Source: a virus (taxonomy: Duplodnaviria > Caudoviricetes). From it: 45,126 bases of DNA. Both the position numbers and the translations under genes were made by a program. The stretch lies in IMG/VR virus record IMGVR_UViG_3300006120_000038, positions 1 through 45,126 of that record. The stretch is one strand, 5' to 3'. Shown here piece after piece: positions 16,371 to 40,570 of this stretch. The number at the start of each line of letters is the position of its first letter. Positions within the stretch are counted from its first letter, which is position 1. Under the pieces are notes generated by a model, which saw only the letters and a program-made list of their open reading frames with translations, was not told where the DNA came from and did not search any database.

Positions 16371-16607
16371 ATGGAAAAGAAATTCTCCAAGAAAGTCACC
16401 AACCCAAAGACGGGGCGTGAGAAGACCGTGAGGTATGGTCAGAAGGGAGCTACCATCAAGCCAGGAACATCCAAGGGAGATGCCTATTGCGCCCGTAGTG
16501 CCGGACAGATGAAAGATCATCCAGCAGCAGCGAAGAACCCTAACTCTCCATTGCGCCTATCTAGGGCAAAATGGAAATGCAGCGGAACCAAATCAAGAAA
16601 ATCCTAA
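16371..16607 (+). CDS. Small basic conserved phage protein (DUF6321-like)
   Basis: VRYGQKG..AYCARSAG..PNSPLRLSRAKWKC. Confidence 0.7.
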   Translation: MEKKFSKKVTNPKTGREKTVRYGQKGATIKPGTSKGDAYCARSAGQMKDHPAAAKNPNSPLRLSRAKWKCSGTKSRKS

Positions 16608-25990: not shown

Positions 25991-26704
25991 ATGGCATCCC
26001 TCACCTTCTCACAGGCGCAAACTTTATTTGCTCCGTTCATCACTTCCCAAGGGGCGAGTGATCCCGGCGTGGGAGTGGCAATCAACTTTGTAAACGAAAG
26101 GTTTATCAACTCCGGTCAGTGGAAGGGGAATAGGTTCATCTATAGCTTTTCAGTGTCGGTTGATTCCAACGGCAATAACTACTTTGACACAGTGCCAGGG
26201 GTGGAGAGTGTGCTGAAGGTGCTGGCAGTTGACCCTACCTACTTGCAGGGAGAGCTTGGTGACGTGATGCCTGATTGGTATCCTTGGGATGAGGGAGGAC
26301 TTGGTTGGCTTCCCCCCAACTATGTGGGGGATCTTCAGATCGTCAGGCAGGGCAACACTCCTGTCAGTGCTTTGCCGAGTGGAGTCACTAGCGATACCCA
26401 ACGATATAGGGTGTTGGGGAAGATGCCGGAGAACCGCTCAATGTATTGTATCGTGAGGAGGGGTTACGTTCCGTTAGTCAACGCCACGGATCTTCTCATC
26501 CCCTCCAACCGGAATGCTTATCGGTATGGGTTGCAAGCCTATAACTACGAGAACATCAACGAGTTGGAAAGGGCGCAAGTTTATTGGGACTATGCCTACA
26601 AGTGCTTGAATGACGAGACGGTGAACTTTGAGGATGGAGAGCTTGCCCAGATTCAAATCCAAACCAAAGCATTTGCCCCAGGCATTATGCAGAACCTAGT
26701 TTAG
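25991..26704 (+). CDS. Putative head-tail adaptor / tail tubular protein
   Basis: Helix-beta-helix layout (N-term INFVNER.., C-term helices) and size typical of podovirus adaptors; precedes ejection genes. Confidence 0.55.
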   Translation: MASLTFSQAQTLFAPFITSQGASDPGVGVAINFVNERFINSGQWKGNRFIYSFSVSVDSNGNNYFDTVPGVESVLKVLAVDPTYLQGELGDVMPDWYPWDEGGLGWLPPNYVGDLQIVRQGNTPVSALPSGVTSDTQRYRVLGKMPENRSMYCIVRRGYVPLVNATDLLIPSNRNAYRYGLQAYNYENINELERAQVYWDYAYKCLNDETVNFEDGELAQIQIQTKAFAPGIMQNLV

Positions 26705-26707
26705 TTT

Positions 26708-27730
26708 ATGGGAGAAGAAAATCAAACACCTTATGATGCGTCATGGTTGACTACCTTGCAGAGCAAGTATGCCCAGCCAATGGACATTACTTCCCAACCT
26801 CTATCTTTCCAGCCAGCCGCCACTACTAATCATTTTGACATAGGGATGGGGAATATCTTGAGCGGTAGTCCTTCATCTGAAGCAATGCAGGGAGGGATTG
26901 GTAATCCTCCCAGAAACCAAGCTCAAGGCGGGGAGATTAAATCCAATGCCATGCAGGAAGCGCATGATGCCGTGATGGACTTGATGAAGGGAGGCAAGGC
27001 CATCCCTAAAGGAATGGTGGAGCCGGAGGCTGGGAGTGGCAAGGTGAGTGGACTGAATCTTTCCCAATACAATAGAGTAGAAAGGGATGTAGCTGGCAAC
27101 ATCATTGGGTTGTCTGGAAGGATGCAAGTTGATCCTATTTCTGGAGCGTCCACTAGTAAGATTGCCCCCGATTGGCAATCTAAAGGAATGGGAGTTTCTG
27201 AAACCGACCCTGATGTAAAGGCAGCAACAATGGCAGGACACAATCCTGCTGATGTGGAGGCAGTGCAAAATGCAATAAGGGGAGCGGCAATCATGAATGC
27301 CGAAAGAAAAGCGTTGGAACAGGGAGCGGGAGAAGGGGTTACTCAAGAAACAAAATCTTACAACCCCAAACAAGAAGCCGCTCAAATAATGGCTCCATCC
27401 ATTAAAGGGTTTGAAACGGCAGCAGAATACTCTAATCTTGCCGCAAATGAACGAAATGCAAGGCTTGCAGAAACATATCGAGCGGGTCAAGGAGAACGTG
27501 GGTTTTCTCCCATTTCTGCATACTATCGTGCCCAAGATGAAAAGAATCTTGAGGATGCTGCAAAAAAGGCCACAAAAGAAGGAGGTTCAGAATTAAGGGC
27601 TAGATCCAAACAAATTCAAGAGCTTCCTTCCTCTGCCACTCAAACCAAATTAACCACCCCATATGGAACAGCAATTGGGTCTGCTGGCAAAATTGACAAG
27701 AGAGTGACCAAGAGACTTTACGGAGAATAA
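26708..27730 (+). CDS. Putative internal virion/ejection protein
   Basis: A/G/Q-rich, low complexity; position. Confidence 0.55.
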   Translation: MGEENQTPYDASWLTTLQSKYAQPMDITSQPLSFQPAATTNHFDIGMGNILSGSPSSEAMQGGIGNPPRNQAQGGEIKSNAMQEAHDAVMDLMKGGKAIPKGMVEPEAGSGKVSGLNLSQYNRVERDVAGNIIGLSGRMQVDPISGASTSKIAPDWQSKGMGVSETDPDVKAATMAGHNPADVEAVQNAIRGAAIMNAERKALEQGAGEGVTQETKSYNPKQEAAQIMAPSIKGFETAAEYSNLAANERNARLAETYRAGQGERGFSPISAYYRAQDEKNLEDAAKKATKEGGSELRARSKQIQELPSSATQTKLTTPYGTAIGSAGKIDKRVTKRLYGE

Positions 27731-27731
27731 C

Positions 27732-29423
27732 ATGGCTACAGGAACCACCCCATCAGGATCAGCTTTTGTTTTTAAGATTCCCTCCGGGGGAAGGCAGGAG
27801 TCCACCTATGCTCCATCTGGATATGCTGCCGCATATGCCCAAGGTAAGGGCATTATGGATATGCTTGATTGGCAAGATGCCCGACGTAAGGATGAAATGT
27901 CAGAGCAGATTGCAATGAGCCGGGAACGACGGGCATTGGAATCTGAAAAGCTGGCAGAAGAGAAAGCCGCAAGGGAAGACGCAAGGCTTGAGCTTCAATC
28001 TCGTCGCCAGATGGATGCTCAAGATCGAGAAAGGCTCAAGCAGGAAAAGCTGGATCAAATGAGTGACACATTGGGGAAAGTCACCTCTGCCATTGATGAC
28101 GTGGACACGCTTCACAAGAATGCTGGCAATATGCTTGATGATATCCGGCATAGTCAGGAGTTTCATCAGCTTGCAGTGAATGCAGGAACCAGAGCGGCAT
28201 TGATGGATGCCTTTAAAGCCAAGGCAGATGAGATCAAGGGAATCCATACTGGCATCCAGCATGAGGCTAAATCCAAGTATGGTATAGAAGCTGACTTGTC
28301 CAACTTCCCCACCGATGAAAAGGGAAGGTATGATTTCAATAAGGGATACAGGGAATATCTTCCCGCTATGGCTCAACAGGCTAGTCAGGCAGCAGAGCAA
28401 GAATATCAGTCTGCTCCAGACAAACCTGGGTTCACCAAGTATGCCGAATTGGATGCCTATGGCAGACCATTGGTGAAGTTTGTAAAAACGGAAGACTTGA
28501 ACAAGCAAAAGCTGGAAGAGCAGAGGGTGGCAAGGGGAGGACAACTCCAAGCCATTGCCGCGATGCAAGCCAGCCGACAAGAGCTTTCCAGTGCCCTTGG
28601 GGGGTTCAAGCAGAAGGAGTTGGAGAATCCCAATGGTTATCTTGATGCCAATGGCAAGCCTACCAAGGATATCAAGAATGCTGTCACTGCAATATGGAAG
28701 GTGAAGGGCAAGGAAGTGGCTAGGATGCCGGAGAACGAAAGGCAAGCTAGGGTTCAGAAGGTGGGGGTTATTTCCCAAAACATTGAGGACTTTGGCAAGA
28801 TGGCATACTCACCCACTTCCGCTGCCGCCACCTCTGCACCTTCAGGGCAACCCGCTGCCCCAACGCAACCTACTGCGCCAGCAGAACAACCTTCTACTCC
28901 TCAAGAACCATCCGCTCCAAGTTCCCCTACGTCTCCGTATTCTCCAGACAACCCTCACGCTCCAGAAGCTCAAAAGCAAAGTGAATCTGATCGTGCGGCT
29001 AAACAAGCCCAAGATGCAAAAAAGGCGATTCAAGAACAGAGTAAGATTAGCGGGAAAATGGCAAATGAAAAAGTAAAGGCTAGGAAAGAACTTGCTGATG
29101 CAGAAAGGGATCTTGAGTATGCAAGGAACCTAAAACCATCCACTTCCATTCAAGATTATGAAGCTCCTACTCCAGAGGAAGCAGCAAAACAATTTGAAGA
29201 AGCCAAACAGAAAGTGGATGCCGCTAAAGCAAAAATGCTTTGGTTCACTGCTCAAGACCCTTTGAGCGCAAAACTTTATCTACGGGAACTATCCGGGGAT
29301 GAGCTTGAAACCTTTAAGAGAGATTATCTTGGCCCCGCAATCTTCAATGAAGCTGGGGGAGATCCAAAGAAAGCTGAAGACATAGCCAGAGAAAGAGGAT
29401 ATGACTTCTTCCTTTCACAATGA
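27732..29423 (+). CDS. Putative internal virion/ejection protein
   Basis: Coiled coils plus Pro-rich linker; position. Confidence 0.55.
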   Translation: MATGTTPSGSAFVFKIPSGGRQESTYAPSGYAAAYAQGKGIMDMLDWQDARRKDEMSEQIAMSRERRALESEKLAEEKAAREDARLELQSRRQMDAQDRERLKQEKLDQMSDTLGKVTSAIDDVDTLHKNAGNMLDDIRHSQEFHQLAVNAGTRAALMDAFKAKADEIKGIHTGIQHEAKSKYGIEADLSNFPTDEKGRYDFNKGYREYLPAMAQQASQAAEQEYQSAPDKPGFTKYAELDAYGRPLVKFVKTEDLNKQKLEEQRVARGGQLQAIAAMQASRQELSSALGGFKQKELENPNGYLDANGKPTKDIKNAVTAIWKVKGKEVARMPENERQARVQKVGVISQNIEDFGKMAYSPTSAAATSAPSGQPAAPTQPTAPAEQPSTPQEPSAPSSPTSPYSPDNPHAPEAQKQSESDRAAKQAQDAKKAIQEQSKISGKMANEKVKARKELADAERDLEYARNLKPSTSIQDYEAPTPEEAAKQFEEAKQKVDAAKAKMLWFTAQDPLSAKLYLRELSGDELETFKRDYLGPAIFNEAGGDPKKAEDIARERGYDFFLSQ

Positions 29424-32400
29424 GCTATTTTGAACAACTTGCTGAACAGCAAAAAAGCAAACCCACTAATGAAAGCTCTAGTGGAGAAGGTTATTTTTAC
29501 AAATTAGCAAAAGGAGGTGAACAAACCAATGAAGCACAAATCAGGAATGAGCCAGAAACCAAACTGGACAACCGGACACAACGACAAGCCCAAGAACAAG
29601 TCAATGCTGTCGGTGGAGAAACCAACGTACAAGCCAATGGACAGTTGCGTACCCAAGACGAAAGCCAGCGTCAACGCAATGACCAAGCCAGTGTCGGGCA
29701 ACGGGACGGCAATTCCGTTCAACTGATAGGAGGTGAGCAAGATGCAGAAACAAAAAGCCAACAAGCCGATGCAGAAGGAAGTCAAAGGCCGGAAGCAGGG
29801 CAAGGCATATCAGGACAAGTCCCTCCGGGGAACCAAGAGGAAGTAGGAAAGGGCGGGGTTCAACCCCCCGCTCAAGGGTTTTTTGAAGAAATCAAAACTC
29901 CTCAAGGCCGAAAGGCAGCTATTGCAAGTGCTTTAGAAGAAGGCATTCCAATGGCTTTAGGGTCTGTGGCGGCAGGAGTTGTTGGCCCAGCGGCAACGGC
30001 TGCGTCTGCCCCGGTAGTTGGCCCTGCGGCTCCCCTTGTGGGAATTGGAGCAGGAGCGGCAACATTTCTAGCCACTCAAGAGTTGGCAAAGAAAGTTTTA
30101 GTAAAGCCAGTTGAGAGTCTTCTTGGGATCAAGGAAGACATTGAAGCGGCACAAGCCGAAGCTCCAACTGCAACAAAATATGGTGGATATGCTGGAATGG
30201 CCCCATTTGCAATTGAATCTGCGGCAGGGTTCTTAAAGACGGGAGCAGAAGCTGCTGCTGGGTTGGCAGGGGGAGAGGCCGTAAAAGAAGCTACCAAGGC
30301 CGTTGGTAAGAAAGCTGCGGCAGGACTAGCTGGAGGTGTTGCCTTTGAGCCTATCCGTTATGGATTTGAAGCCACGGAGAAAGGTCTTGGCATTACTGAT
30401 GAAACTCCCAAACCAATTACCGGAGAGTCTTTGCTTGAGTCTGGATTGATGGGGGCAGTTTTGGGAGGCAAGGTTGAGAAAGAACTTGCCAAAAACGAAG
30501 CTGGAAAAAATGAAATTAAATCTGCTGGACTTCCCGAAACGGCAGAACTGGCAAGCAAGCTCAAGCCTGACGCAACCATTGAAAAAGAAAATGAAGTTGC
30601 GTTGGAAACAGAAAAAGAAAAGCCAAAGCAAGTCAGGATCGGGGCAGCGGCATGGAAGAATGACCGCACCGGGGCAATCTACTATGGGGAAAATCATGAA
30701 GCGGCAGTAGCGGCAGCAAGAAGGGATGCCCAAGATCCAGAGAATAAGGACAAGGTGGCAGTGGGAGATTTGCCAAAAGTGGACGTGACTGTTCCGGCTA
30801 ATCGAGAAACTCCTGACTTTGGATACATCACCAAGGATGGAGAGTTCGTTTCAAGGGATGAAGCCCAAAAGTTTGCTGAACAATCCGGTCAATTTAAGGG
30901 CAAAACTACTGATCGTCCGGTCATGCACTCCAATGAAGTGCAGTTGGATTTCTACGAGAAGCCTTTGGAGCAACCTTCAGAGCAAGCAAGGCAACTGCCT
31001 GGAGCCGCCAGCAAGGGGCAATTCACCGAATCCCGCCTCACTGAAGCGGTGAAGGCAATGGACGATGCTGAAAAGGCAAAGGGACGACCCTTGGATGTGG
31101 GTAATGAAGGAGATAAGAGGGCTTGGATTGATGAGTTGAACAAGCGGTTTGACCCAGGATCATTCTCATTCAATGAGCTTAATTCCCTTTGGAATCAATC
31201 CCATGAGGCTTATCGAATCCGTAATGCGGCTGGAAAGACCATCCCTCCAGAGCTTGCTGTGCAACAAATCGGGGGAAACAGGATTTTAAGCCAGCGCAGG
31301 ATTGCCACTAGGAACGAAGACATCAACAAGGAAAGGGCAAGCAAGGGGCTTCCTCCGGTAATGCCGGGGAGGGAGATCACTCAATCAGGGGCATGGAACA
31401 CTGCCGCTGAAAAAATTGCTGAAGAACCTCAATACCTTTACGACTTGGTTTCCGATCTCAAGAAAAGCCCAAGGGCAGTCACGGCAGAAGAAACTGCTGC
31501 CCTCCAACAGCACATGGGAGAGATTCAGAACGATCTGGACTCCCTTTCCGAAAAGAGAAATTCAGAAACAGATCCTAATAAGCTCAAGGAAATTGACGCT
31601 CAATTTGACAAGAAGCTAGAAGACTTTGCGGACATTTCTCAGGTATACAAGAACATTGGAACTGAAACATCTGCCGGATTGAGGCAGAGGGCTATCTTTG
31701 CCGCTGCTGACTATTCCCTTCCTCGACTCATTGCCAGAAAAGAAAAGGCACTTCAGAGGAAACTCACCACCAAGGAATTGCGTGAGGCAAAGGCAGATTC
31801 CGACAAGGTGAGGAAACTTACTGATGAATTGGACGGGCTAAATAGTGAGCGGATTGAGAAGCGTCAGGATGCAGATATCCAAGCAGAGACCAAGCCACCC
31901 AAGAAGAAGTCTAACCTCACGGCAGACGAGCAGATTGAAAAGCATAAAGCCAAGCTGGAATCCCTGAAAGATCTACCGGAAGGAAAAGAAAAAGCCAAAA
32001 AGATTTCCTCTGCAATGAAGAAGCTGGCTACCGCAATCACTCAAAAGAGATTGGAGGAAGCTGAATCAAAAATGCGCAGAGAGCTTACGGAGGAAGAAGA
32101 AAAACAAGTTACAAGACCCCGTGATATTTCCCAAGCTACTCATGAGATTGCTTCATCCGTGTTGGGAGATAAATGGACTCTGAAAGATTCCCGCAATGCA
32201 ATTTCTGGATATGGCATTTACGACTCTCCTGACAAAACAGGATTGAGTAAAGCTGTTAGTCGTTTGATCGGGGTAAATCGAAACATTGGCAAGATTGAGG
32301 ATATCGTAAAGGAACTAGCCCCCCAGCGCACGGGCAAGCAAAGGTTAAAGCCTGGAGCGGAAGAACGATCCCTCCAAAAGAAAGTGAATGCTTTGATTCG

Positions 32401-35005
32401 TAGGTTCAACATCAAGGCTGAAGACCCAGAGAAGCAATTGCAGGGGGCAATGGAAGCGGCAAAGACCCGTGCAAGGAATGCCGTGGAAGAGCTTGAAGAG
32501 ATTTTCCTCAAGGGAAGGCCATTAAATGAAGAGGCTAGGGTTCAGATTGCCAATGAAGATCCAGACCTTGCCGATCTGAAAGGCGAGATTGCCGGACTCA
32601 AGCAACTCATTGAAGACACTTACGGCAAAAAAGAAATCCCAATTGAGCGGAAGATTAAGTCTTTGGAGAAGATTTACGATGGTCTGATTGAGCGATATGA
32701 GAAGGAAATTGCCTCTGGGGAAGTGTTCAAGACCACAACAAAGGGGGAGAAGCTGACCAGTGAAAAACTTGAGCAACAAAGGGAAACCCTCAAGAACCTC
32801 CGTGCAGAACGCCAGCATATCCGTGATGCCGATAGCTTGAGGCAGGAAACGCTCAAAGTTGCTAAAGCAGAGAAGCGCATTGCGGAGATTTCAAAAATTC
32901 TTTCAGGGGATGTGGTTGATCCCAAAACGGGCAAGAATCTTGCAGAAGGGCCGGAGTCCCAGCGGGTAACTGAACTCCGCGCAGAGGTGGCTAAAGCTGA
33001 AGCTGACCTTAAAAAATATCGTGACTCGTTAAAGGTAAAGAAGACTGAAGACGAAAAACTTCTTGATGCACTTAACAAGAAAAAAGAAAACGCAGAAGAG
33101 AGGCTTGCCAGAGTGCAGACCGGAGAGGCAAAGGAAAAGCCGGAACAAAAAGTTGCTCGTACTGCTGAACAGAAGGAAGTCCAAAAAGAAATTGATTCCC
33201 TAAACAAGCAGATCAAGGAATATCAGGAAGCCAACAGGAAGCGCAAAACCGAAGAGGAGAAGCGGGAGTCCTTGCTTGAGCGTCAAATTAAAAATCAAAA
33301 AGAGATCCTTGCCAAGCAGGAGATTAAGGCAAGGGAAACAAAGACCAAGCCAACAAGCCCCCGCATTGAGGAGTTGGAAAAGGAGCTTGCCACCCTCAAA
33401 GATCAAACGATGAACGAGGATTGGTACAAAACTCGGAAGGAAGCAATTGCCCTTCAAGCCTACAAGAATCGAGTCAACACGCAGATTGAGGAAGCCAAAC
33501 GTAGGCTTGCCGAAGGAGATTACTCCAAGGCAGAAAGGAAGGAACTGAAGATTGATGAGGAAGCTAGGTTGAAAAAACTTGAGCTTGCCGAACTCAAAGA
33601 CAAGATTCGCCAGAACATCACTCTTGAGGAATGGAAGAATCGTCCTCCTCTCCAGAAAGCAGTTGATGCCACCATCAAGTTTAAACGAGCAGCAGTTTTG
33701 TCCTATCTCTCCACTTGGGCAAAGCTCACGTCTGCCTCTCTTGAGATTCCTCTTCTCCGCATTCCATCTGCTGTGGCAGGAAAGGTGTTGGAGAAAACCC
33801 CGTTCTTTAAGGAAATTGCTCAAAAAGCCAGACAGGAATACGGCACTCCCTTGGACAAGGATGTGGCGGCATATACCAAAGGACTTGTTTCTGGGTGGAA
33901 AGAATTCAGCAATATTGCCTTTAAGTTGGGTAGGTCAGAACTGGATCTTGAGTATGGGGACACAAGCCTGATCCCATTGGGGGCATTGGATGTTCCAGGC
34001 AAGATCCACGAAGCAATCAAGAACCCTACCAAGAAGGCGAACTACGAATTGGCACTTTCCCGATATCTGCAATGGGCAGTCAGGGAAGATCCAAGCATTG
34101 ACATTAAAGACCCAGTGCTTTTGGAGAAGGCAGGAATTGAAGCGTACAAGGAAGCCAATGCTTCCATCTTCCTTCAAGACAATGGGTTAGTGAATAAATA
34201 CAACCTCCTTGTAAACAAGATGAAGGAAAGTGATAGCTGGAGGCAAAGGCTTGCTGCTCGATTCCTTGAGTTCAATATCCCAATTGTTCGTATCCCAGCC
34301 AACATTGTGAAGGAAGCCCTTGAGTATCAGTTTGGTTTCTTCACAGGAACCAGCAAGGCAATCCGCATGAAAATGAGCAAGGAGATAGGTAAACGCCTTG
34401 AGGACATCTCCCCGGAGGATGCTGACCTGATCATGCGTCAGATTAAGAAGGGAAGCGTGGGTCTTATGGCAATGGCTATTGGATATGCCCTTCCCGATTA
34501 CTTTGGTGGATTCTACCGAAAGGGGGCAGAAAAGGATGAGGAAGCACCGGAATACGGAGCTATTGGGCCTATTCCCAAAACCCTCCTGCACCATCCTGCA
34601 TTTGTTCCATTCCAGATAGGGGCCACCATTCGGAGGGTATGGGATGATACCATGATGGATCGAGCCACGTTTGGTGATGACGCTTCCGCAATTGCCCGTG
34701 GGTTTGCAGAAGGTCAGATGGGATTACTTGAAGAACTTCCTTTCGTGAACCTATCCCGTAACGTGGGCAAGTATGTTGACCCAGAAAGAATCACCGACAC
34801 TGCCGGAGAATTCACGAAATCAATGGTTCCTGGGTTCATCCAAGAAGCCGCAAAGGTGATGGACGTACCGGAGAATAGCGTGGGAGAAGTTTTAAAAACA
34901 TTGTTCTGGGACAAGAAAGATGTTACTAAACGGCAAGCTGAAACCTACTTGGATCACGTTAAAGAAGCACTTCCTGTGTTGCGTGAACAAGTACCAGAGA
35001 AATAA
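29420..35005 (+). CDS. Giant internal virion (DNA ejection) protein, 1861 aa
   Basis: Ala/Gly-rich membrane-like segment, long coiled coils, helical C-terminal domain. Confidence 0.65.
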   Translation: MSYFEQLAEQQKSKPTNESSSGEGYFYKLAKGGEQTNEAQIRNEPETKLDNRTQRQAQEQVNAVGGETNVQANGQLRTQDESQRQRNDQASVGQRDGNSVQLIGGEQDAETKSQQADAEGSQRPEAGQGISGQVPPGNQEEVGKGGVQPPAQGFFEEIKTPQGRKAAIASALEEGIPMALGSVAAGVVGPAATAASAPVVGPAAPLVGIGAGAATFLATQELAKKVLVKPVESLLGIKEDIEAAQAEAPTATKYGGYAGMAPFAIESAAGFLKTGAEAAAGLAGGEAVKEATKAVGKKAAAGLAGGVAFEPIRYGFEATEKGLGITDETPKPITGESLLESGLMGAVLGGKVEKELAKNEAGKNEIKSAGLPETAELASKLKPDATIEKENEVALETEKEKPKQVRIGAAAWKNDRTGAIYYGENHEAAVAAARRDAQDPENKDKVAVGDLPKVDVTVPANRETPDFGYITKDGEFVSRDEAQKFAEQSGQFKGKTTDRPVMHSNEVQLDFYEKPLEQPSEQARQLPGAASKGQFTESRLTEAVKAMDDAEKAKGRPLDVGNEGDKRAWIDELNKRFDPGSFSFNELNSLWNQSHEAYRIRNAAGKTIPPELAVQQIGGNRILSQRRIATRNEDINKERASKGLPPVMPGREITQSGAWNTAAEKIAEEPQYLYDLVSDLKKSPRAVTAEETAALQQHMGEIQNDLDSLSEKRNSETDPNKLKEIDAQFDKKLEDFADISQVYKNIGTETSAGLRQRAIFAAADYSLPRLIARKEKALQRKLTTKELREAKADSDKVRKLTDELDGLNSERIEKRQDADIQAETKPPKKKSNLTADEQIEKHKAKLESLKDLPEGKEKAKKISSAMKKLATAITQKRLEEAESKMRRELTEEEEKQVTRPRDISQATHEIASSVLGDKWTLKDSRNAISGYGIYDSPDKTGLSKAVSRLIGVNRNIGKIEDIVKELAPQRTGKQRLKPGAEERSLQKKVNALIRRFNIKAEDPEKQLQGAMEAAKTRARNAVEELEEIFLKGRPLNEEARVQIANEDPDLADLKGEIAGLKQLIEDTYGKKEIPIERKIKSLEKIYDGLIERYEKEIASGEVFKTTTKGEKLTSEKLEQQRETLKNLRAERQHIRDADSLRQETLKVAKAEKRIAEISKILSGDVVDPKTGKNLAEGPESQRVTELRAEVAKAEADLKKYRDSLKVKKTEDEKLLDALNKKKENAEERLARVQTGEAKEKPEQKVARTAEQKEVQKEIDSLNKQIKEYQEANRKRKTEEEKRESLLERQIKNQKEILAKQEIKARETKTKPTSPRIEELEKELATLKDQTMNEDWYKTRKEAIALQAYKNRVNTQIEEAKRRLAEGDYSKAERKELKIDEEARLKKLELAELKDKIRQNITLEEWKNRPPLQKAVDATIKFKRAAVLSYLSTWAKLTSASLEIPLLRIPSAVAGKVLEKTPFFKEIAQKARQEYGTPLDKDVAAYTKGLVSGWKEFSNIAFKLGRSELDLEYGDTSLIPLGALDVPGKIHEAIKNPTKKANYELALSRYLQWAVREDPSIDIKDPVLLEKAGIEAYKEANASIFLQDNGLVNKYNLLVNKMKESDSWRQRLAARFLEFNIPIVRIPANIVKEALEYQFGFFTGTSKAIRMKMSKEIGKRLEDISPEDADLIMRQIKKGSVGLMAMAIGYALPDYFGGFYRKGAEKDEEAPEYGAIGPIPKTLLHHPAFVPFQIGATIRRVWDDTMMDRATFGDDASAIARGFAEGQMGLLEELPFVNLSRNVGKYVDPERITDTAGEFTKSMVPGFIQEAAKVMDVPENSVGEVLKTLFWDKKDVTKRQAETYLDHVKEALPVLREQVPEK
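29529..29726 (+). CDS. Overprinted small basic protein 1 (65 aa, +1 frame of giant gene)
   Basis: AGGAGGTGA at 29512-29520, 8 nt before ATG; MKHKSGMSQKPNW.. Confidence 0.65.
   Translation: MKHKSGMSQKPNWTTGHNDKPKNKSMLSVEKPTYKPMDSCVPKTKASVNAMTKPVSGNGTAIPFN
29742..29846 (+). CDS. Overprinted small basic protein 2 (34 aa, +1 frame)
   Basis: AGGAGGTGA at 29728-29736, 5 nt before ATG; MQKQKANKPMQKEVKGRKQGKAYQDKSLRGTKRK. Confidence 0.65.
   Translation: MQKQKANKPMQKEVKGRKQGKAYQDKSLRGTKRK
29851..29884 (+). terminator. Terminator-like hairpin inside giant gene
   Basis: GGGCGGGG/CCCCGCTC stem, then AAGGG-TTTTTT, 4 nt after the overprinted ORF2 stop. Confidence 0.5.
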
Positions 35006-36786
35006 TGGCAACTTCCAAACCTCCAAAACAACCTCCTTTCCCACACCCTCCTCTTGAGCAGGGAGTGGCGCAGTACCCTACGCCCGTAGTACCCAACTAC
35101 AACGACAAGAAGGGCGGCTGGGGGCTTTCTGATCAGGGTCATATCGTATTGGTGGAGCGGGTGAGTATTGAGAAAGGCAACTTCAACCCTCAACCTCTGG
35201 ATGGCACGGTCATTTACACCGGAAGGGATGCAAACAAGTGGCCCTCCACCCTCTATCTCGTAGCGGAAAAGCCCACTCCAGATGGTGAATTTATCTATAG
35301 GTTCTGGGCAAATGATCGTTCATTGGCCTCCCAAGACCCTTGGAATTATGGGATCAAGTATGATGCCGGAGATCCCAACTTCCCCGAATACATCCGTGAT
35401 TACATTGTGCCAAGGAGTCAGTATGCTCCTGCGGATATTGGAACTAAAGATCCGGTGTTTGGAGCAGGGCAACCCATCACCCTTGCGGTCAACAATACCA
35501 CTCACATTGCCACGGTAAGTGGAACTGGATTCAATCTGACAATTGGATCAGCTATCACGATCTATAGCACCACGGCTCAAACCAATAGTTTGCTTGGCCC
35601 ATTCACGCTTCTAGCCACTCCTCCACCTACCTCCACCAGACTTTACTTCACTGCACCAGCAGGGGCTTCTGTGCCTACCGGGAGCTTGTTTATCAACCCA
35701 ACGGTGATTAGTGAGCAGGAGATGTCGCCATTGCCAGAGGACAATCCCTTGCGATCTAGGTATGTGGCAGTAAGGAGGATCTACGAGCCTATCCCTGGGG
35801 CGGTGCTTATTACCAATGAGAACAAGCCGGGACTCATGGGCATCATTCAGAAGAATGATCAACTGGTCACTGCCCAGACCCAACCCAATTCCCTTTCGCT
35901 AGACACGGCAGATGGAAGCGTGTTGGAGTCTACTGTGGAACACGTCAGTGCGGCAAAGTCCAATCTGACAACCATCTACACTACTGGCCCATACGAGTTG
36001 GACGGTAACCTGTACGATGATTTCTCACAGTTGAATCTGGTTCACAGGGAGTTGATTGTGCCAGCGGGAACTGCTGCCCTCACTGATGCGTCTTCTGGAT
36101 ACGGAGGGGGAGCGAATGGATATCTATTGTCAGCAAGGGATGAACCTATTGATGCCAGCAAGACCAAACGCACGATTGTGTCGGTTGCTTCTCTTCCTCC
36201 TAGTCGAATAGAATATAGGACAGGAACATATACAACCCCCACGTTAATTAAAGGATTAAATATCCAGGGATATAATCTTTCTTGCGGTGCAACAACAGAC
36301 ATTAGAGTGGTTGTTCAGCCTGTTTCTAGGGCATCTCAAACAAAACCAACCACATTCAAAACAGTAACAAGTTATAGTTATGGCGCACCAACCACTACTG
36401 GTGATTGTTATTTGTTTTCTCCGGTATTGCAACAATTGGCATACACTGGGTTGTTTGTTAATTTTGATTTAGGTGGCGTGTTAAATGATCCAATAGATTC
36501 AACAACTACTCCTAATACAAAAATCTGTTATTCTTGCACCAGTGGAGGGGCATCGCAGGGATGTGAAAATATTAAATTTGATGCTTCATCACCATTTTCT
36601 GCGACAGATTACATAACGCTAATCAATGGTGGTACTGTCCAGAAAACCATTGGACAAACTTCTGGAACATTGTGTCCTGCTACTTTAACCACATTTACTG
36701 GCCCTTATGTGCCTATTTCTTGGGATTCTAAATATTGGAAAGCTGGAATTTGGGAAATAAAAACAACATACGTTAAATTATTCTAA
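35005..36786 (+). CDS. Virion structural (tail) protein
   Basis: Beta/Thr-rich 593 aa; TAATG-coupled in virion block. Confidence 0.6.
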   Translation: MATSKPPKQPPFPHPPLEQGVAQYPTPVVPNYNDKKGGWGLSDQGHIVLVERVSIEKGNFNPQPLDGTVIYTGRDANKWPSTLYLVAEKPTPDGEFIYRFWANDRSLASQDPWNYGIKYDAGDPNFPEYIRDYIVPRSQYAPADIGTKDPVFGAGQPITLAVNNTTHIATVSGTGFNLTIGSAITIYSTTAQTNSLLGPFTLLATPPPTSTRLYFTAPAGASVPTGSLFINPTVISEQEMSPLPEDNPLRSRYVAVRRIYEPIPGAVLITNENKPGLMGIIQKNDQLVTAQTQPNSLSLDTADGSVLESTVEHVSAAKSNLTTIYTTGPYELDGNLYDDFSQLNLVHRELIVPAGTAALTDASSGYGGGANGYLLSARDEPIDASKTKRTIVSVASLPPSRIEYRTGTYTTPTLIKGLNIQGYNLSCGATTDIRVVVQPVSRASQTKPTTFKTVTSYSYGAPTTTGDCYLFSPVLQQLAYTGLFVNFDLGGVLNDPIDSTTTPNTKICYSCTSGGASQGCENIKFDASSPFSATDYITLINGGTVQKTIGQTSGTLCPATLTTFTGPYVPISWDSKYWKAGIWEIKTTYVKLF

Positions 36787-37013
36787 TGGAATTTTATCAA
36801 CCAACCCGCCCATCGTCAGACGAATCGGCACTATCGGCAGGAGTGTCGTATAATTTCAATGGGCAAATTGCTGCAGGGGGAGTTTCTTACAAAGGGGTGT
36901 ATCCATCTCCTAATCCTCCTACTCAATCACCGGGGCAAACAGTCACCTTGCAAGTTTGCGTGAATGGAGTGGCAAAGCAGATTGACGTGTATGCCGCAGG
37001 GCTACCTTACTGA
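36786..37013 (+). CDS. Small tail-associated protein
   Basis: TAATG-coupled; LQVCVNG motif. Confidence 0.6.
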   Translation: MEFYQPTRPSSDESALSAGVSYNFNGQIAAGGVSYKGVYPSPNPPTQSPGQTVTLQVCVNGVAKQIDVYAAGLPY

Positions 37014-37015
37014 TT

Positions 37016-37687
37016 ATGTCATTTAATGTTTTGGGGCTTTTCCCCGGATGTTTTGTTCCCACTAATGATGGAACCCTTGTGGGGCCAGGAACAAATTTTC
37101 CTTTTGGATTTGTGTTGGATGATTTGATGCGGTTTTATTGGAGGCGCAACTGGAACACGTTTGAACTTAGATCAGACATATCGGCAACGGTGGTTGCAGG
37201 ATCAAGCAGTGATTCAATTTCCCCGATCAACACGGTTATTGCTGGAAATTATGATCCAACAGTTTCCACTTATCATGATTTAGTTTGCGGCAGCAGTATC
37301 ACTTTACCATATGTGCCTGGAGATCCTTTACGACTTGAAATTAGCCTTCAATTAGATGCGGCTCTTGGAGTAATTTACAATGGTTTATATTATCCTTATT
37401 GCGTTTCTTATATGTTAGTGCAAATAGGGGTAGCATCATATCCACAAGAAGCTCAAGTTGGATTTCAATGGTCATCTTCCTACAGTCAATCATATATCAA
37501 TACGCAATTGGCATCAACCCCAGGCGCATTTCAAAAGAACATAAACTTCATCATAGATGGATTACCTAGCTGCACATTTCAAGTGCTTGGTTATGGAGTA
37601 GTTTTACAATACGGTGGAGGCACTGCCAGCCTTTCAATATCCCAAGTTCAGATGAATGCCGGAGGCACTTGGAGTTATCCTACTTGA
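37016..37687 (+). CDS. Hypothetical tail-associated protein
   Basis: Beta-rich, AT-rich ORF. Confidence 0.6.
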   Translation: MSFNVLGLFPGCFVPTNDGTLVGPGTNFPFGFVLDDLMRFYWRRNWNTFELRSDISATVVAGSSSDSISPINTVIAGNYDPTVSTYHDLVCGSSITLPYVPGDPLRLEISLQLDAALGVIYNGLYYPYCVSYMLVQIGVASYPQEAQVGFQWSSSYSQSYINTQLASTPGAFQKNINFIIDGLPSCTFQVLGYGVVLQYGGGTASLSISQVQMNAGGTWSYPT

Positions 37688-37712
37688 CATCCATCTTGTC
37701 GGAATGTAAACC
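37684..37712 (+). promoter_or_regulatory. Promoter candidate
   Basis: TTGACA-17-TAAACC, 12 nt before ATG. Confidence 0.5.
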
Positions 37713-37724
37713 AGACCTACTGAA

Positions 37725-38762
37725 ATGATAGTAGCAATTGCATACCACAATGGTGATCTTCCGCTCATGCGGAGATGGGCGAATCGAGTCAAGCAGCTTG
37801 GCCCATACATGAACCATGAGATCATCCTATCTCCGGTCAGGGGAGTGACCACTGACGGTATCCTCCTTCCCCTAGAGAACTGCTTTAGGAAAGTCCATAT
37901 CGTTCCAGCCAATCACTCCGAACAGGGATGGCCCGTGAGTTGCAATAGGGCATTCCAGAACATTGCTTGGCATTCAACGCTCGTCACCAGGCAATCATTC
38001 CTCTTTATGGAGCCTGATGCCATTCCTCTTTGCGAGGGATGGATTGACCAGATTGAGGCAGAATATCGTCAGTGCCAACGTCCATTCATGGGAGACTTTG
38101 TGGATCTATCCTCTGCCGATATCCCCGGAGGGATTGACCACATGAGCGGGATTGCCGTGTATGATTGGAATCTTTCCCAGACTGCCTCCCGTGTGTTCAA
38201 CTGCGTGTCCAACATCAAGTTTGCCGATGGGCATACCAAGGAAGAGGAATATGCTTGGGACATCTTTGCTGCTTCCGACATCGTTCCCAAGATGCATAGG
38301 ACTACCCTGATCCAACATGATTGGAGGGGAACCAGTGACCGATCCCATGAGTGGCGCAAGAATAACGTGGAGCCTTCCTTTGTGAGGCCAGGGGCAGTTA
38401 TTTACCATCCCGATAAGAAGGGAGTTCTTTTAAACGATGGGCTTGCTGGCCCGTCGAGTAGTGTGCAGGGAGATCCTGCGACGGGGGGTGATGCGATAAC
38501 TACCTCCTCATTTAATCACGACGAGCCAGCTCCTATTGATGAAAAAACAACCGAAATACAACAAAAAGCTCCCTTGGCAGGGACGAAAGAAGCTCAACTT
38601 GGAGCCATTGACAACGCAATCAACGTCCTTGCCTTCCACCACAATCTCGGCGGCTGGAACAGAAAGCACGTCAAAGAAAGCCTCGTCAAAGCCGGATTCG
38701 CAAAAGCCTCGAAAGTCAAGCGTGTTGGAAAGAAAGTTCGCCCTTCTTTGGTCAACGCTTAA
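37725..38762 (+). CDS. GT-A fold glycosyltransferase-like protein with low-complexity C-terminal extension
   Basis: GWP.SCN..F, FLFMEPDAIPL..GWID (ExD), HMSGIAVY, WD, IYHPDK. Confidence 0.65.
   Translation: MIVAIAYHNGDLPLMRRWANRVKQLGPYMNHEIILSPVRGVTTDGILLPLENCFRKVHIVPANHSEQGWPVSCNRAFQNIAWHSTLVTRQSFLFMEPDAIPLCEGWIDQIEAEYRQCQRPFMGDFVDLSSADIPGGIDHMSGIAVYDWNLSQTASRVFNCVSNIKFADGHTKEEEYAWDIFAASDIVPKMHRTTLIQHDWRGTSDRSHEWRKNNVEPSFVRPGAVIYHPDKKGVLLNDGLAGPSSSVQGDPATGGDAITTSSFNHDEPAPIDEKTTEIQQKAPLAGTKEAQLGAIDNAINVLAFHHNLGGWNRKHVKESLVKAGFAKASKVKRVGKKVRPSLVNA
38445..38530 (+). ncRNA. Structured element B (same architecture as element A)
   Basis: GCTGGCCCGTCG/CGACGAGCCAGC; GCAGG-GAGAT-CCTGC; GGGGGTG/TACCTCC. 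Confidence 0.55.
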
Positions 38763-39039
38763 AGGGGAAAGTCTTGTAGAGGAGCATAGGTTTCATCCGG
38801 TCAGGAAGTGGAGGTTGGACTTTGCCCATCTTGAAACCAAGGTGGGGATTGAGTTGCAGGGAGGCGTGTTTAGCGGAGGCCGTCATGCCAGAGGATACGG
38901 AATCGTCGGAGACTATGAAAAGGGAAATGAAGCTATTTTTTGCGGTTGGGTGATTATCCAGCTATCTGCAAAGCAGATCACCACGGAGAACATTGAGAAA
39001 ATTCGTGAGTTGATTGCAAAAAGATCGTTAAATAAATAA
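38539..39039 (+). CDS. Vsr/DUF559-like endonuclease
   Basis: EHRFHPVRKWRLDFA..GIELQGG..GGRH..DYEK.N.A..GW. Confidence 0.85.
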   Translation: MKKQPKYNKKLPWQGRKKLNLEPLTTQSTSLPSTTISAAGTESTSKKASSKPDSQKPRKSSVLERKFALLWSTLKGESLVEEHRFHPVRKWRLDFAHLETKVGIELQGGVFSGGRHARGYGIVGDYEKGNEAIFCGWVIIQLSAKQITTENIEKIRELIAKRSLNK

Positions 39040-39065
39040 ATTATTGCGGCTATTCGCAAAACCTA

Positions 39066-39095
39066 TTGACAAAAGTAGCAAAAATTTGCTAATCC
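39066..39095 (+). promoter_or_regulatory. Capsid promoter with embedded inverted repeat
   Basis: TTGACA at 39066; TAGCAAA-AA-TTTGCTA at 39076-39091. Confidence 0.55.
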
Positions 39096-39271
39096 AAGAA
39101 TTGCTGTATCTCATTTAACGATGAGAAGGGGGTCGCTCCCCAATAAAATAAACTGGCTGTAACTGGAAATCGCCTACCAGAAAAAACAGAATCGGGCATC
39201 ACGCTTGATTCAAAAACAAACTTTAATAAGAAAACTCTTATTAAAACAAACCACATTACTCTTTAATAATC

Positions 39272-40516
39272 ATGTCTGCTACTATTTCATGCTCTACAGT
39301 GAATGACATCTTTGAGCGGGAAACTTCCCGTTTCAACGTTGACATTTACGAGCGTTATTCCGTGGATGGCCCTTGGGGTCGTCTAGTGCGTGTTGGCAAG
39401 TTCCCTCTTGGTATGGGCACAACCCTGACTGAAGTCACGGTTGAGCGTGTGCTTTCCGGTAACTTTGAAAACACCTGGGCTAACGTTTCCACCTCGTCTG
39501 GACTTGGCTCCCCCAACAACGTTGCGGGCTGCAATCCTACTCCTAACAGTCTCAACTTTGGTCAGACGCTCCGTACTTGGCAGCTTCAGACCCAGGCTTA
39601 TCAGACTCCTTGCATCTGCTTGGACGATCTGAAGACTGCGTTCCAAATCGAGGCACAGGTTGGAAAGACCGTTGATCAGCTTACCCAGTTGACCAAGACG
39701 GTTCTGGACAATCGTCGCCGTGCAGAGTATCTGCGTATCGTTGGAAAGTCGGTTGCCGGAGATGTGACCCAGACTGTTTATCAGTCCGCTACCATCAACG
39801 GAACCACTGTTCCCAATGCGCTTTACAACAGCGTCACTGGCAATGCGATCCCCGCTCCTACGGCAAAGCTCTCACAGGACTTCCTTGATGTCCTGCGTGT
39901 TCAGCTTATCCGTGACGGTGCTGGTCACAATGCCCTCGGTAAGGAGAACGGTGTTCCAGTGCTTGGTCTGATCACCTCGCCCGAAACGAGCCGTGATCTG
40001 CTCCGCAACAATGCTGATCTCCGTCAGGATATCCGCTATGCCACCCCTTCGGAACTCATTGCACCTCTTGGTGTGGAGCGTTCCTTCCAGGGTTACTACC
40101 ACCTGATTGATCTGGAGCTTCCTCGCTTCGTGTTCAGCAACAACCAGTGGGTACAGGTTTATCCTTACATCCAGCAGTCCACGAACAATGGATATAGCTG
40201 GGAGATCAACCCTGCCTACAACGTTGCTCCTTACGAGGTTTCGTATGTGTTCCACCCGGACGTGTACGAGGAGAGCGTTCAACAGGTTGGGCCAAACATC
40301 CCCGGTGCGCCGTTCGACGATTATCCGTACTACTATTCCGGTCAGTTCTTCTGGCTGAATATTAGGGATGCCGTGAATAACCCGCTGGGTAAGATCGGTC
40401 GTTGGCTTGGAATCTTCCAGAGCGGAAGCCGCCCGATTGCTCCGTACCTTGGTCGCGCTATTATCCACAAGCGTTGCCCATACGACGTTAGCTTCGTCGG
40501 TTGCTACTACTCCTAA
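39272..40516 (+). CDS. Major capsid protein
   Basis: 414 aa; high-expression codon bias (GGT/CGT/AAC); own promoter, long leader and strong terminator. Confidence 0.75.
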   Translation: MSATISCSTVNDIFERETSRFNVDIYERYSVDGPWGRLVRVGKFPLGMGTTLTEVTVERVLSGNFENTWANVSTSSGLGSPNNVAGCNPTPNSLNFGQTLRTWQLQTQAYQTPCICLDDLKTAFQIEAQVGKTVDQLTQLTKTVLDNRRRAEYLRIVGKSVAGDVTQTVYQSATINGTTVPNALYNSVTGNAIPAPTAKLSQDFLDVLRVQLIRDGAGHNALGKENGVPVLGLITSPETSRDLLRNNADLRQDIRYATPSELIAPLGVERSFQGYYHLIDLELPRFVFSNNQWVQVYPYIQQSTNNGYSWEINPAYNVAPYEVSYVFHPDVYEESVQQVGPNIPGAPFDDYPYYYSGQFFWLNIRDAVNNPLGKIGRWLGIFQSGSRPIAPYLGRAIIHKRCPYDVSFVGCYYS

Positions 40517-40531
40517 TCGGTAGTTAATCAA

Positions 40532-40570
40532 GAAGGGGCCATCAGAGAAATCTGGTGGCCCTTTTCTTTT
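40532..40570 (+). terminator. Intrinsic terminator
   Basis: GGGCCATCAG-AGAAAT-CTGGTGGCCC-TTTTCTTTT. Confidence 0.9.

Follow-up and report, generated by a model that had tools for sequence, protein, structure and literature searches.

A tandem pair of small basic genes and an RNA hairpin nested in the linker of a giant tailed-phage gene

Two short reading frames, ORF A and ORF B, lie one behind the other in the +1 frame of a giant tailed-phage gene, and our analysis confirms them as conserved, separately selected genes nested in a linker of that gene. Throughout this cassette the frame of the giant gene (the host frame) is still maintained open, and the evidence supports its being a passenger there, free of amino-acid constraint. 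The best overall explanation, to which we assign a probability of roughly 60%, is that ORF A and ORF B are internally initiated and encode basic head peptides, with the giant frame as the passenger. The window, i.e., the whole stretch of DNA analyzed, is a complete virus record of 45,126 bases. Its features are listed in Table 1, together with those of a third nested gene, ORF C, in related loci; loci are numbered with the prefix L.

Table 1. Location of the nested genes, their signals and neighboring features. Positions refer to the window unless a locus is given.
Feature	Location	Strand	Remarks
Conserved upstream gene, 237 aa	25991..26704	+	Module marker; possible podophage head-tail adaptor (low-confidence model, pLDDT 47)
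Giant gene, 1861 aa (host frame)	29420..35005	+	Start overlaps the stop of 27732-29423 (ATGA); no SD
Host-frame N-terminal segment before the cassette	29420..29511	+	Short aromatic/acidic repeat motifs, swapped among relatives
SD of ORF A	29512..29520	+	AGGAGGTGA; host frame reads Gly-Gly-Glu
ORF A, 65 aa	29529..29726	+	+1 frame of giant gene; basic, predicted disordered
SD of ORF B	29728..29736	+	AGGAGGTGA
ORF B, 34 aa	29742..29846	+	+1 frame; Lys content near 34% in the family, C-terminal motif conserved
Conserved hairpin	29851..29873	+	Loop 29859-29865 closed by G-C, with tRNA T-loop invariant bases
T-run	29879..29884	+	Six T's, encodes host Phe-Phe; not conserved
Second giant-gene linker	30587..30631	+	Empty in the window (no ORF C)
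ORF C	L003:3091-3222, L013:6130-6261, L024:2892-3023, L048:3496-3627
ORF C	L077:3956-4087, L080:3986-4117, L082:3626-3757, L088:3632-3763

Start signals of ORF A and ORF B

A first-pass annotation of the window had described two ORFs in the +1 frame of the 1861-aa gene, each behind an identical Shine-Dalgarno (SD) sequence at spacings of 8 and 5 nt. This description is confirmed in the window, and the observation that no further AGGAGGTGA occurs is borne out by a genome-wide count of exactly two, at 29512 and 29728. Taken alone, the two copies are borderline, since 0.44 are expected and at least two occur in 6 of 100 shuffles. Start strength was scored for all 913 plus-strand ATGs against a 13-nt anti-SD tail. 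On this scale, ORF A and ORF B (-17.7 and -16.1 kcal/mol) take ranks 1 and 2, followed by a third site at -15.8 kcal/mol, and the giant gene's own start reaches -0.6 kcal/mol. That ordinary gene starts lack SD sites was stated too generally: it applies to 37 of the 43 other gene starts picked in the window for comparison, and the remaining six have an SD-like site at the chosen cut-off of -8 kcal/mol or lower. A free-standing Lys-rich 78-aa gene at 16371-16607, which has a weak PHROG match only, also has an SD-like site (-10.3 kcal/mol).

The signals recur in related phages. Across 24 loci, the SD of ORF A reads AGGAGGTG in 23 cases and AGGGGGTGA in L040, and the start codon (23 ATG, one GTG) is always 5 or 8 nt away from it. 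The host-frame Gly-Gly at this SD is encoded by GGA-GGT in 23 of the 24 loci; elsewhere in the giant genes, this holds for 12 of 144 Gly-Gly pairs. ORF B, which carries an invariant K/R motif, starts with ATG in ten, GTG in eight and TTG in six of these loci, and is preceded by a strong SD in 19, coupled to ORF A by a start 3 nt past the ORF A stop in three, and served by a weak site in two. Both ORFs are thus situated wholly inside a larger gene on the same strand, in another frame and with conserved initiation signals of their own, as nested same-strand genes are. Judged by these sequence features, both are very probably translated.

An internal SD might alternatively stimulate a +1 frameshift, so that A or B forms a basic C-terminal tail on the N-terminal segment of the giant protein. 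That segment directly precedes the SD, and internal SD sites stimulate the +1 shift of prfB (PMC10798248). We nevertheless consider a frameshift highly unlikely. An initiator codon stands at initiation spacing before ORF A in 24 of 24 loci, and that of ORF B varies only among ATG, GTG and TTG. The codons behind the SD vary among loci without any conserved shift site, which argues against SD-stimulated frameshifting, and the three coupled ORF B starts do without an SD altogether.

Distribution among relatives

The arrangement SD-A-(gap)-B in the +1 frame was found in 35 distinct loci, window included; these loci are mutually related, and counts across them are non-independent. A search with the giant protein returned 24 proteins, itself included. 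The first set of loci, assembled by searching with the giant protein, with an alignment of it and with a single DNA pattern, comprised L001-L038, 20 of them distinct. Exact duplicates were left out, as were L005 (a chance pattern match), L020 and L026 (contigs starting past the cassette), L025 (which differs from L024 by a single residue in ORF B), and L016 and L017, which equal the window. After these exclusions, 15 loci including the window carry the cassette. A scan of GTDB added L063, likewise with cassette.

Two further scans made no use of the giant protein. The ORF B profile recovered 17 loci, nine of them new, and the ORF A profile 26 loci, ten of them new; no loci were found for the homolog P0030. 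Every copy recovered by the two profiles is nested: a long open ORF holds ORF A and then ORF B in its +1 frame, close to the N-terminal end. No free-standing ORF A or ORF B appeared in the scans with either profile. In many of the new loci, the giant protein just downstream is, by eye, unlike that of the window, and the cassette thus appears better conserved than its surroundings. It is not universal among related giant genes, as L038 has such a gene, with no A/B motif anywhere in the 5.7 kb of this locus. Here the N-terminal slots between similar repeat motifs (L038:3765-5742) hold two other inserts in place of the A-B cassette.

The giant gene itself varies in organization. Residues 1 to 30-60 of its product belong to one of four or five exchangeable repeat-motif types, independent of the cassette type that follows. 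In two loci (L012:4281-8100 and L063:2857-8820) it is split into about 1270-1310 plus 684 codons.

Frame-specific selection

Substitutions reveal which of the two frames is under constraint. A parsimony count over 24 loci, broken down by codon position (1/2/3) of the +1 frame, gives 161/133/267 changes in ORF A (51 codons) and 53/45/108 in ORF B (last 28 codons); in terms of host-frame codons, the same changes are most frequent at position 1. Two stretches coding in the host frame only, which served as controls (13 and 12 sequences), peak at the third position of their own frame, with 167/147/349 and 195/169/404.

Estimates of dN/dS were obtained with the model GY+F3X4+G, which ignores the overlap, so that a host-frame value above 1 is to be read as "unconstrained" and not as positive selection. 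ORF A gives 0.24 in the +1 frame versus 1.72 when the same DNA is read in the host frame, and ORF B 0.10 versus 2.66; the host-only controls give 0.22 and 0.145. Differences that discriminate between the frames were counted in nine disjoint pairs, in two of which ORF A was omitted as too divergent. Among them, 96 alter the host residue and are silent for the +1 peptide, versus 19 of the reverse kind (expected 48:52; p = 3e-15). In relatives, the SD, the start and stop codons and the +1 peptide are maintained and the residues of the giant frame diverge, so that the test by which the first-pass annotation could have been refuted came out in its favor. Its suggestion that the +1 frame is constrained and the giant frame the passenger likewise agrees with the dN/dS values.

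These data bear on the simplest objection, namely that a low-complexity Gly/Glu/Gln linker gives rise to the +1 ORFs and their SD sites incidentally. Elsewhere in these genes 13% of stop-free +1 runs do reach 50 codons, and two copies of AGGAGGTGA are within chance. Such an origin does not account for the 96:19 excess of substitutions that alter the host residue and leave the +1 peptide unchanged, nor for the preference for GGA-GGT at the ORF A SD. Provided that the alignments are correct, the frame-specific tests refute it, and we regard its probability as close to nil.

The giant frame across the cassette

Several observations indicate that the giant frame still reads through the cassette. 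None of the 35 loci has a stop in the host frame, and 19 of them were found through A or B only. At wobble sites where a T risks a host-frame stop (before codons starting with AA, AG or GA), T occurs in none of 804 cases, a result given by construction for loci found via the giant protein and not so for the 19 found via A or B. The expectation for these 804 sites is 214 T's from genome codon usage, or about 92 from the rate at safe wobble sites, where T occurs in 104 of 1312. The length of the gap between ORF A and ORF B is a multiple of 3 in all 24 loci compared, and in several loci the host repeat motif recurs within it.

It follows from the same data that a later start of the giant protein is scarcely probable. 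According to this reading, ORF A and ORF B are free-standing, the giant protein truly starts past the hairpin, and its N-terminal extension is an accidental open frame. Host-frame dN/dS values above 1 over the cassette and the annotated start without SD would fit such a reading. Against it stand the open frame in every locus, including those found via A or B only, the depletion of stop-creating T's relative to safe sites, the gap lengths, the repeat motif between A and B, and the annotated start itself, which abuts the stop of the upstream gene in 24 of 24 loci, at a distance of -4 to +15 nt.

The hairpin behind ORF B

The first-pass annotation had also placed a GC hairpin with a T-run immediately after ORF B and proposed that it may cap or attenuate the mRNA. 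The hairpin is real, with 8 pairs of which 7 are G-C, though the T's begin 5 nt past the stem. It heads the list of 26 terminator-like sites in the region 26000-40000 (18 expected); its energy is unremarkable in a 61-nt context (z = -1.08; 26 of 200 shuffles as good), and stability across loci is modest (mean z = -1.5). Comparison with relatives does not support hairpin plus T-run as a terminator or attenuator. A T-run of at least five T's after the stem is kept in 3 of 23 loci and codes for host Phe-Phe, and loop and stem are conserved instead. A classical intrinsic terminator was rejected accordingly, as the G+C-rich stem is present and the U-tract is neither conserved nor, in the window, adjacent to it. 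The window does contain a classical terminator form, unlike the hairpin behind ORF B, at 40532-40565, where a long hairpin directly followed by T's stands after the presumed major capsid gene.

The loop motif, G-TTC-N-A-Y-C-C, lies within about 50 nt of the ORF B stop in 23 of 24 loci, in L063 and in 8 of 10 further loci, against a background of 3 in 75,282 nt. Conservation in related phages, which had been proposed as a check, thus amounts to 32 of 35 loci. Fourteen hairpins were aligned to the window's own structure, a bias in its favor; 87.5% of cells pair, and the covariation score is higher than in every one of 500 shuffles and in each slid control. The pair beside the closing pair occurs as G-C, A-U, C-G, U-A and U-G. 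The host residue over the loop varies among Gln, Pro, Arg and Leu, so that it is the nucleic acid that is constrained. ORF A and ORF B persist in L043 and L084, which lack the loop motif, and in L083, where it is altered; some lineages can thus dispense with the loop.

In its bases, the hairpin resembles the tRNA T-arm, the invariants of which are listed in PMC7912444: closing pair G53-C61, U54, U55, C56, A58 and Y60 in a seven-base loop. All of these are present in the 32 loci with the motif, which were picked by this very pattern. The T-arm further has a purine at position 57 and a five-pair stem; here, 17 of 23 loci have a purine at this position, and the uninterrupted stem has 1-10 pairs and is often bulged. 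There is no tRNA or tmRNA body with acceptor, D-arm, anticodon arm or tag frame, ARAGORN reporting 0 genes. In several loci, the T-loop register is not the most probable fold. Rfam yielded only four sub-threshold, unrelated matches. Two further candidates were rejected: a DNA palindrome or operator, as loop variants break the symmetry, and an attP-like tRNA fragment, as the stems differ between relatives. Tentatively, and with somewhat less than even confidence, we interpret the hairpin as an RNA signal recognized through its loop, which may form a processing or stabilizing 3' boundary of the A-B message.

The hairpin invites a different reading of the peptides, in which A and B are translated and act in the infected cell as RNA-binding peptides and not in the head. 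Peptide B might bind the hairpin behind it, with the binding of boxB by lambda N as a model, and set the ratio of giant to upstream product, or the peptides might act on host ribosomes. The proximity of the loop to the ORF B stop, far above background, and the invariant K/R motif of ORF B are in line with this, and ribosomes that start internally at strong sites would compete with those already translating the giant frame. However, both peptides persist where the loop is missing or altered, and ORF C, described below, is nested likewise without an SD, suggesting a general placement of basic late genes. We consider a role in the infected cell the main alternative, though an unlikely one, and continue with the reading of A and B as head peptides.

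A third nested gene

A later linker of the giant gene holds another nested gene, ORF C (43 aa, +1 frame, without SD), in eight loci, a number to be read without a denominator, as many loci end too early to be scored. Close relatives, including the window, have a shorter linker at this place. The selection pattern is the same, with a dN/dS of 0.11 in the +1 frame versus 3.08 in the host frame. All three ORF C sequences tested match phrog_2423 (E = 1.6e-20 to 4.7e-22), a family of unassigned function whose members are small, Lys-rich and often located among head/packaging genes; ORF A and ORF B are not members according to the profile test.

The family, which is free-standing in cultured phages, matches 458 phage records. 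In the seven records opened, the member is a separate small ORF, located in five among head/packaging genes, in one last in the genome and in one in a tRNA cluster. The member in BcepB1A sits under a head maturation protease annotation. In cyanophage MED4-117, an intact, unannotated phrog_2423-like gene (L060:4001-4129) lies between the portal/head morphogenesis and major head genes.

ORF C is older and wider than its overlap; ORF A and ORF B were found nested only. It appears that small genes can enter linkers of the giant gene whole and out of frame. Such a capture is feasible without damage to the linker, as the would-be host frame across the free-standing phrog_2423 genes is already open in two of seven cases and contains stops in five. 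For ORF A and ORF B, we slightly favor the same origin, i.e., out-of-frame capture into a tolerant linker; with no free-standing form found, it is drawn by analogy with ORF C.

The giant gene and its module

The giant gene is part of a module with the order conserved 237-aa gene, two medium genes, giant gene, and 593-aa gene. The giant protein has no match in PHROG, Pfam or among cultured phages; the presumed capsid, the portal and the product of gene 35005 have none among cultured phages, and the presumed capsid none in the PDB. For the model of the 237-aa protein, the best Foldseek matches are adaptor, tail tubular A and crAss-like proteins, all weaker than E = 0.001, and this product is possibly a podophage head-tail adaptor. 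Podophages share a gene order of core and ejection proteins, as in T7 (gp14-16) and P22 (gp7/20/16). Because of this order, and given the neighbor's weak fold matches, the giant protein is likely a low-copy virion core or ejection protein.

Downstream, a nuclease-like ORF with a Lys-rich N-terminus (38539-39039) lies over the gene 37725-38762, in the +1 frame of this preceding gene. It begins about 200-270 nt inside the 3' end of its neighbor and is also found in six relatives.

A weak hint at the host comes from one relative, whose contig was binned with a Phycisphaerales MAG. According to PMC10783764, some Verrucomicrobia are SD-scarce and Phycisphaerae stand at 46%; these figures fit the present case without identifying the host.

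Properties and proposed role of the peptides

The net charge is +7 to +11 for ORF A and +10 to +14 for ORF B. The model of an ORF A homolog, P0027, shows no confident structure (pLDDT 58, pTM 0.15). In charge and, for the ORF A homolog, in predicted fold, the peptides thus look like internal virion peptides, which are small, strongly basic and unfolded when alone. Neither has a PHROG or Pfam match, nor a match among cultured phages (best E = 1), and no family was found in the ESM Atlas, where the top scores of 0.82 and 0.80 are leads only. A search for longer fused forms of ORF A found none, which is weak evidence. The ORF B profile, run over 1.84 billion representatives, gave only two matches, B-like peptides of 32 and 35 aa, and profile searches overall gave only six A-like and two B-like short proteins. 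With no family match, the functional reading is based on the charge and position of the peptides and on their analogy with ORF C, which is of a different family. On this basis we give even odds to the joint proposition that the peptides are abundant, reside in the virion and bind DNA.

The following course of events is proposed. The cassette would have arisen by out-of-frame capture of small genes, as the ORF C of relatives suggests. Ribosomes would start internally on ORF A and ORF B at the strong SD sites and make many copies of two short basic peptides, which would most likely bind and neutralize DNA inside the phage head. The giant protein would be made at a low level from an SD-less start coupled to the upstream gene. 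Its ribosomes would read through the cassette, where the product is presumably an unconstrained acidic/Gln-rich linker. The T-loop-like hairpin would be recognized via its loop and mark a processing or stabilizing 3' boundary of the A-B message.

A more far-reaching scenario is rather doubtful as a whole. Linkers of giant core proteins would be landing slots for out-of-frame small genes, or even for a two-gene operon that brings its own RNA signal, such that a single stretch of mRNA yields the giant protein in few copies and basic DNA-packing peptides in many. Gene callers might then have overlooked a hidden class of virion peptides across uncultured phages, and the T-arm mimic might recruit a host tRNA-handling enzyme that cuts or stabilizes the peptide message.

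Independent of this scenario, the cassette is an unusually clean overlap in tailed phages: an operon inside a gene, in which the hidden frame is selected and the annotated frame is a passenger, across dozens of genomes. It would explain the odd Gly-Gly-Glu-led, Gln/Glu-rich linkers in many giant phage proteins as the shadow of another frame. Standard annotation misses these genes, which may be the most strongly initiated ones of their phages. The defined SD sites and the hairpin make internal initiation within a translated ORF testable with reporters.

Comparison with known systems

Nested genes are already known in phages. The Rz/Rz1 spanin genes of lambda and gene E within D of phiX174 are examples in which the nested member has its own ribosome-binding site. 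They share with the present case a same-strand gene lying wholly in another frame of a late phage gene. They differ in that here a tandem pair and an RNA hairpin are nested, the products are short basic peptides where those are lysis proteins, the overlapped part of the host frame is free of constraint, and relatives gain or lose a further nested gene. What is added here is the tandem pair, the conserved RNA element, the frame-specific statistics and the polymorphic third gene. In the literature consulted on overlaps, basic peptides and T-loops in phage mRNA, which included few subscription papers, we found no small basic genes nested in giant virion genes.

With regard to the products, the internal proteins of T4 and protamine-like viral core peptides are small, basic and late. 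So are A and B, and the proposed function, charge neutralization in the capsid, is alike. No sequence similarity to these proteins was found.

PMC3494269, which also names lambda Rz/Rz1 as nested genes, treats de novo overprinting in viruses, including an overlapped disordered and hypervariable linker of a replicase gene. As in that example, the overlap described here falls on a disordered, weakly constrained stretch, and the nested product is predicted to be disordered. The polarity, however, looks reversed: constraint acts on the small frame, which in the case of ORF C is also far more widespread, which makes the linker sequence the derived text. For E. coli, PMC8788219 describes ORgenes and considers that a full-sized gene may integrate out of frame and thereby give the host gene a new protein sequence. 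Unlike in ORgenes, where the alternative frame is the new sequence, the frame of the putatively captured gene is here under purifying selection and has its own initiation signals. The cassette thus points to a route to gene overlap in which existing genes are captured instead of being overprinted de novo.
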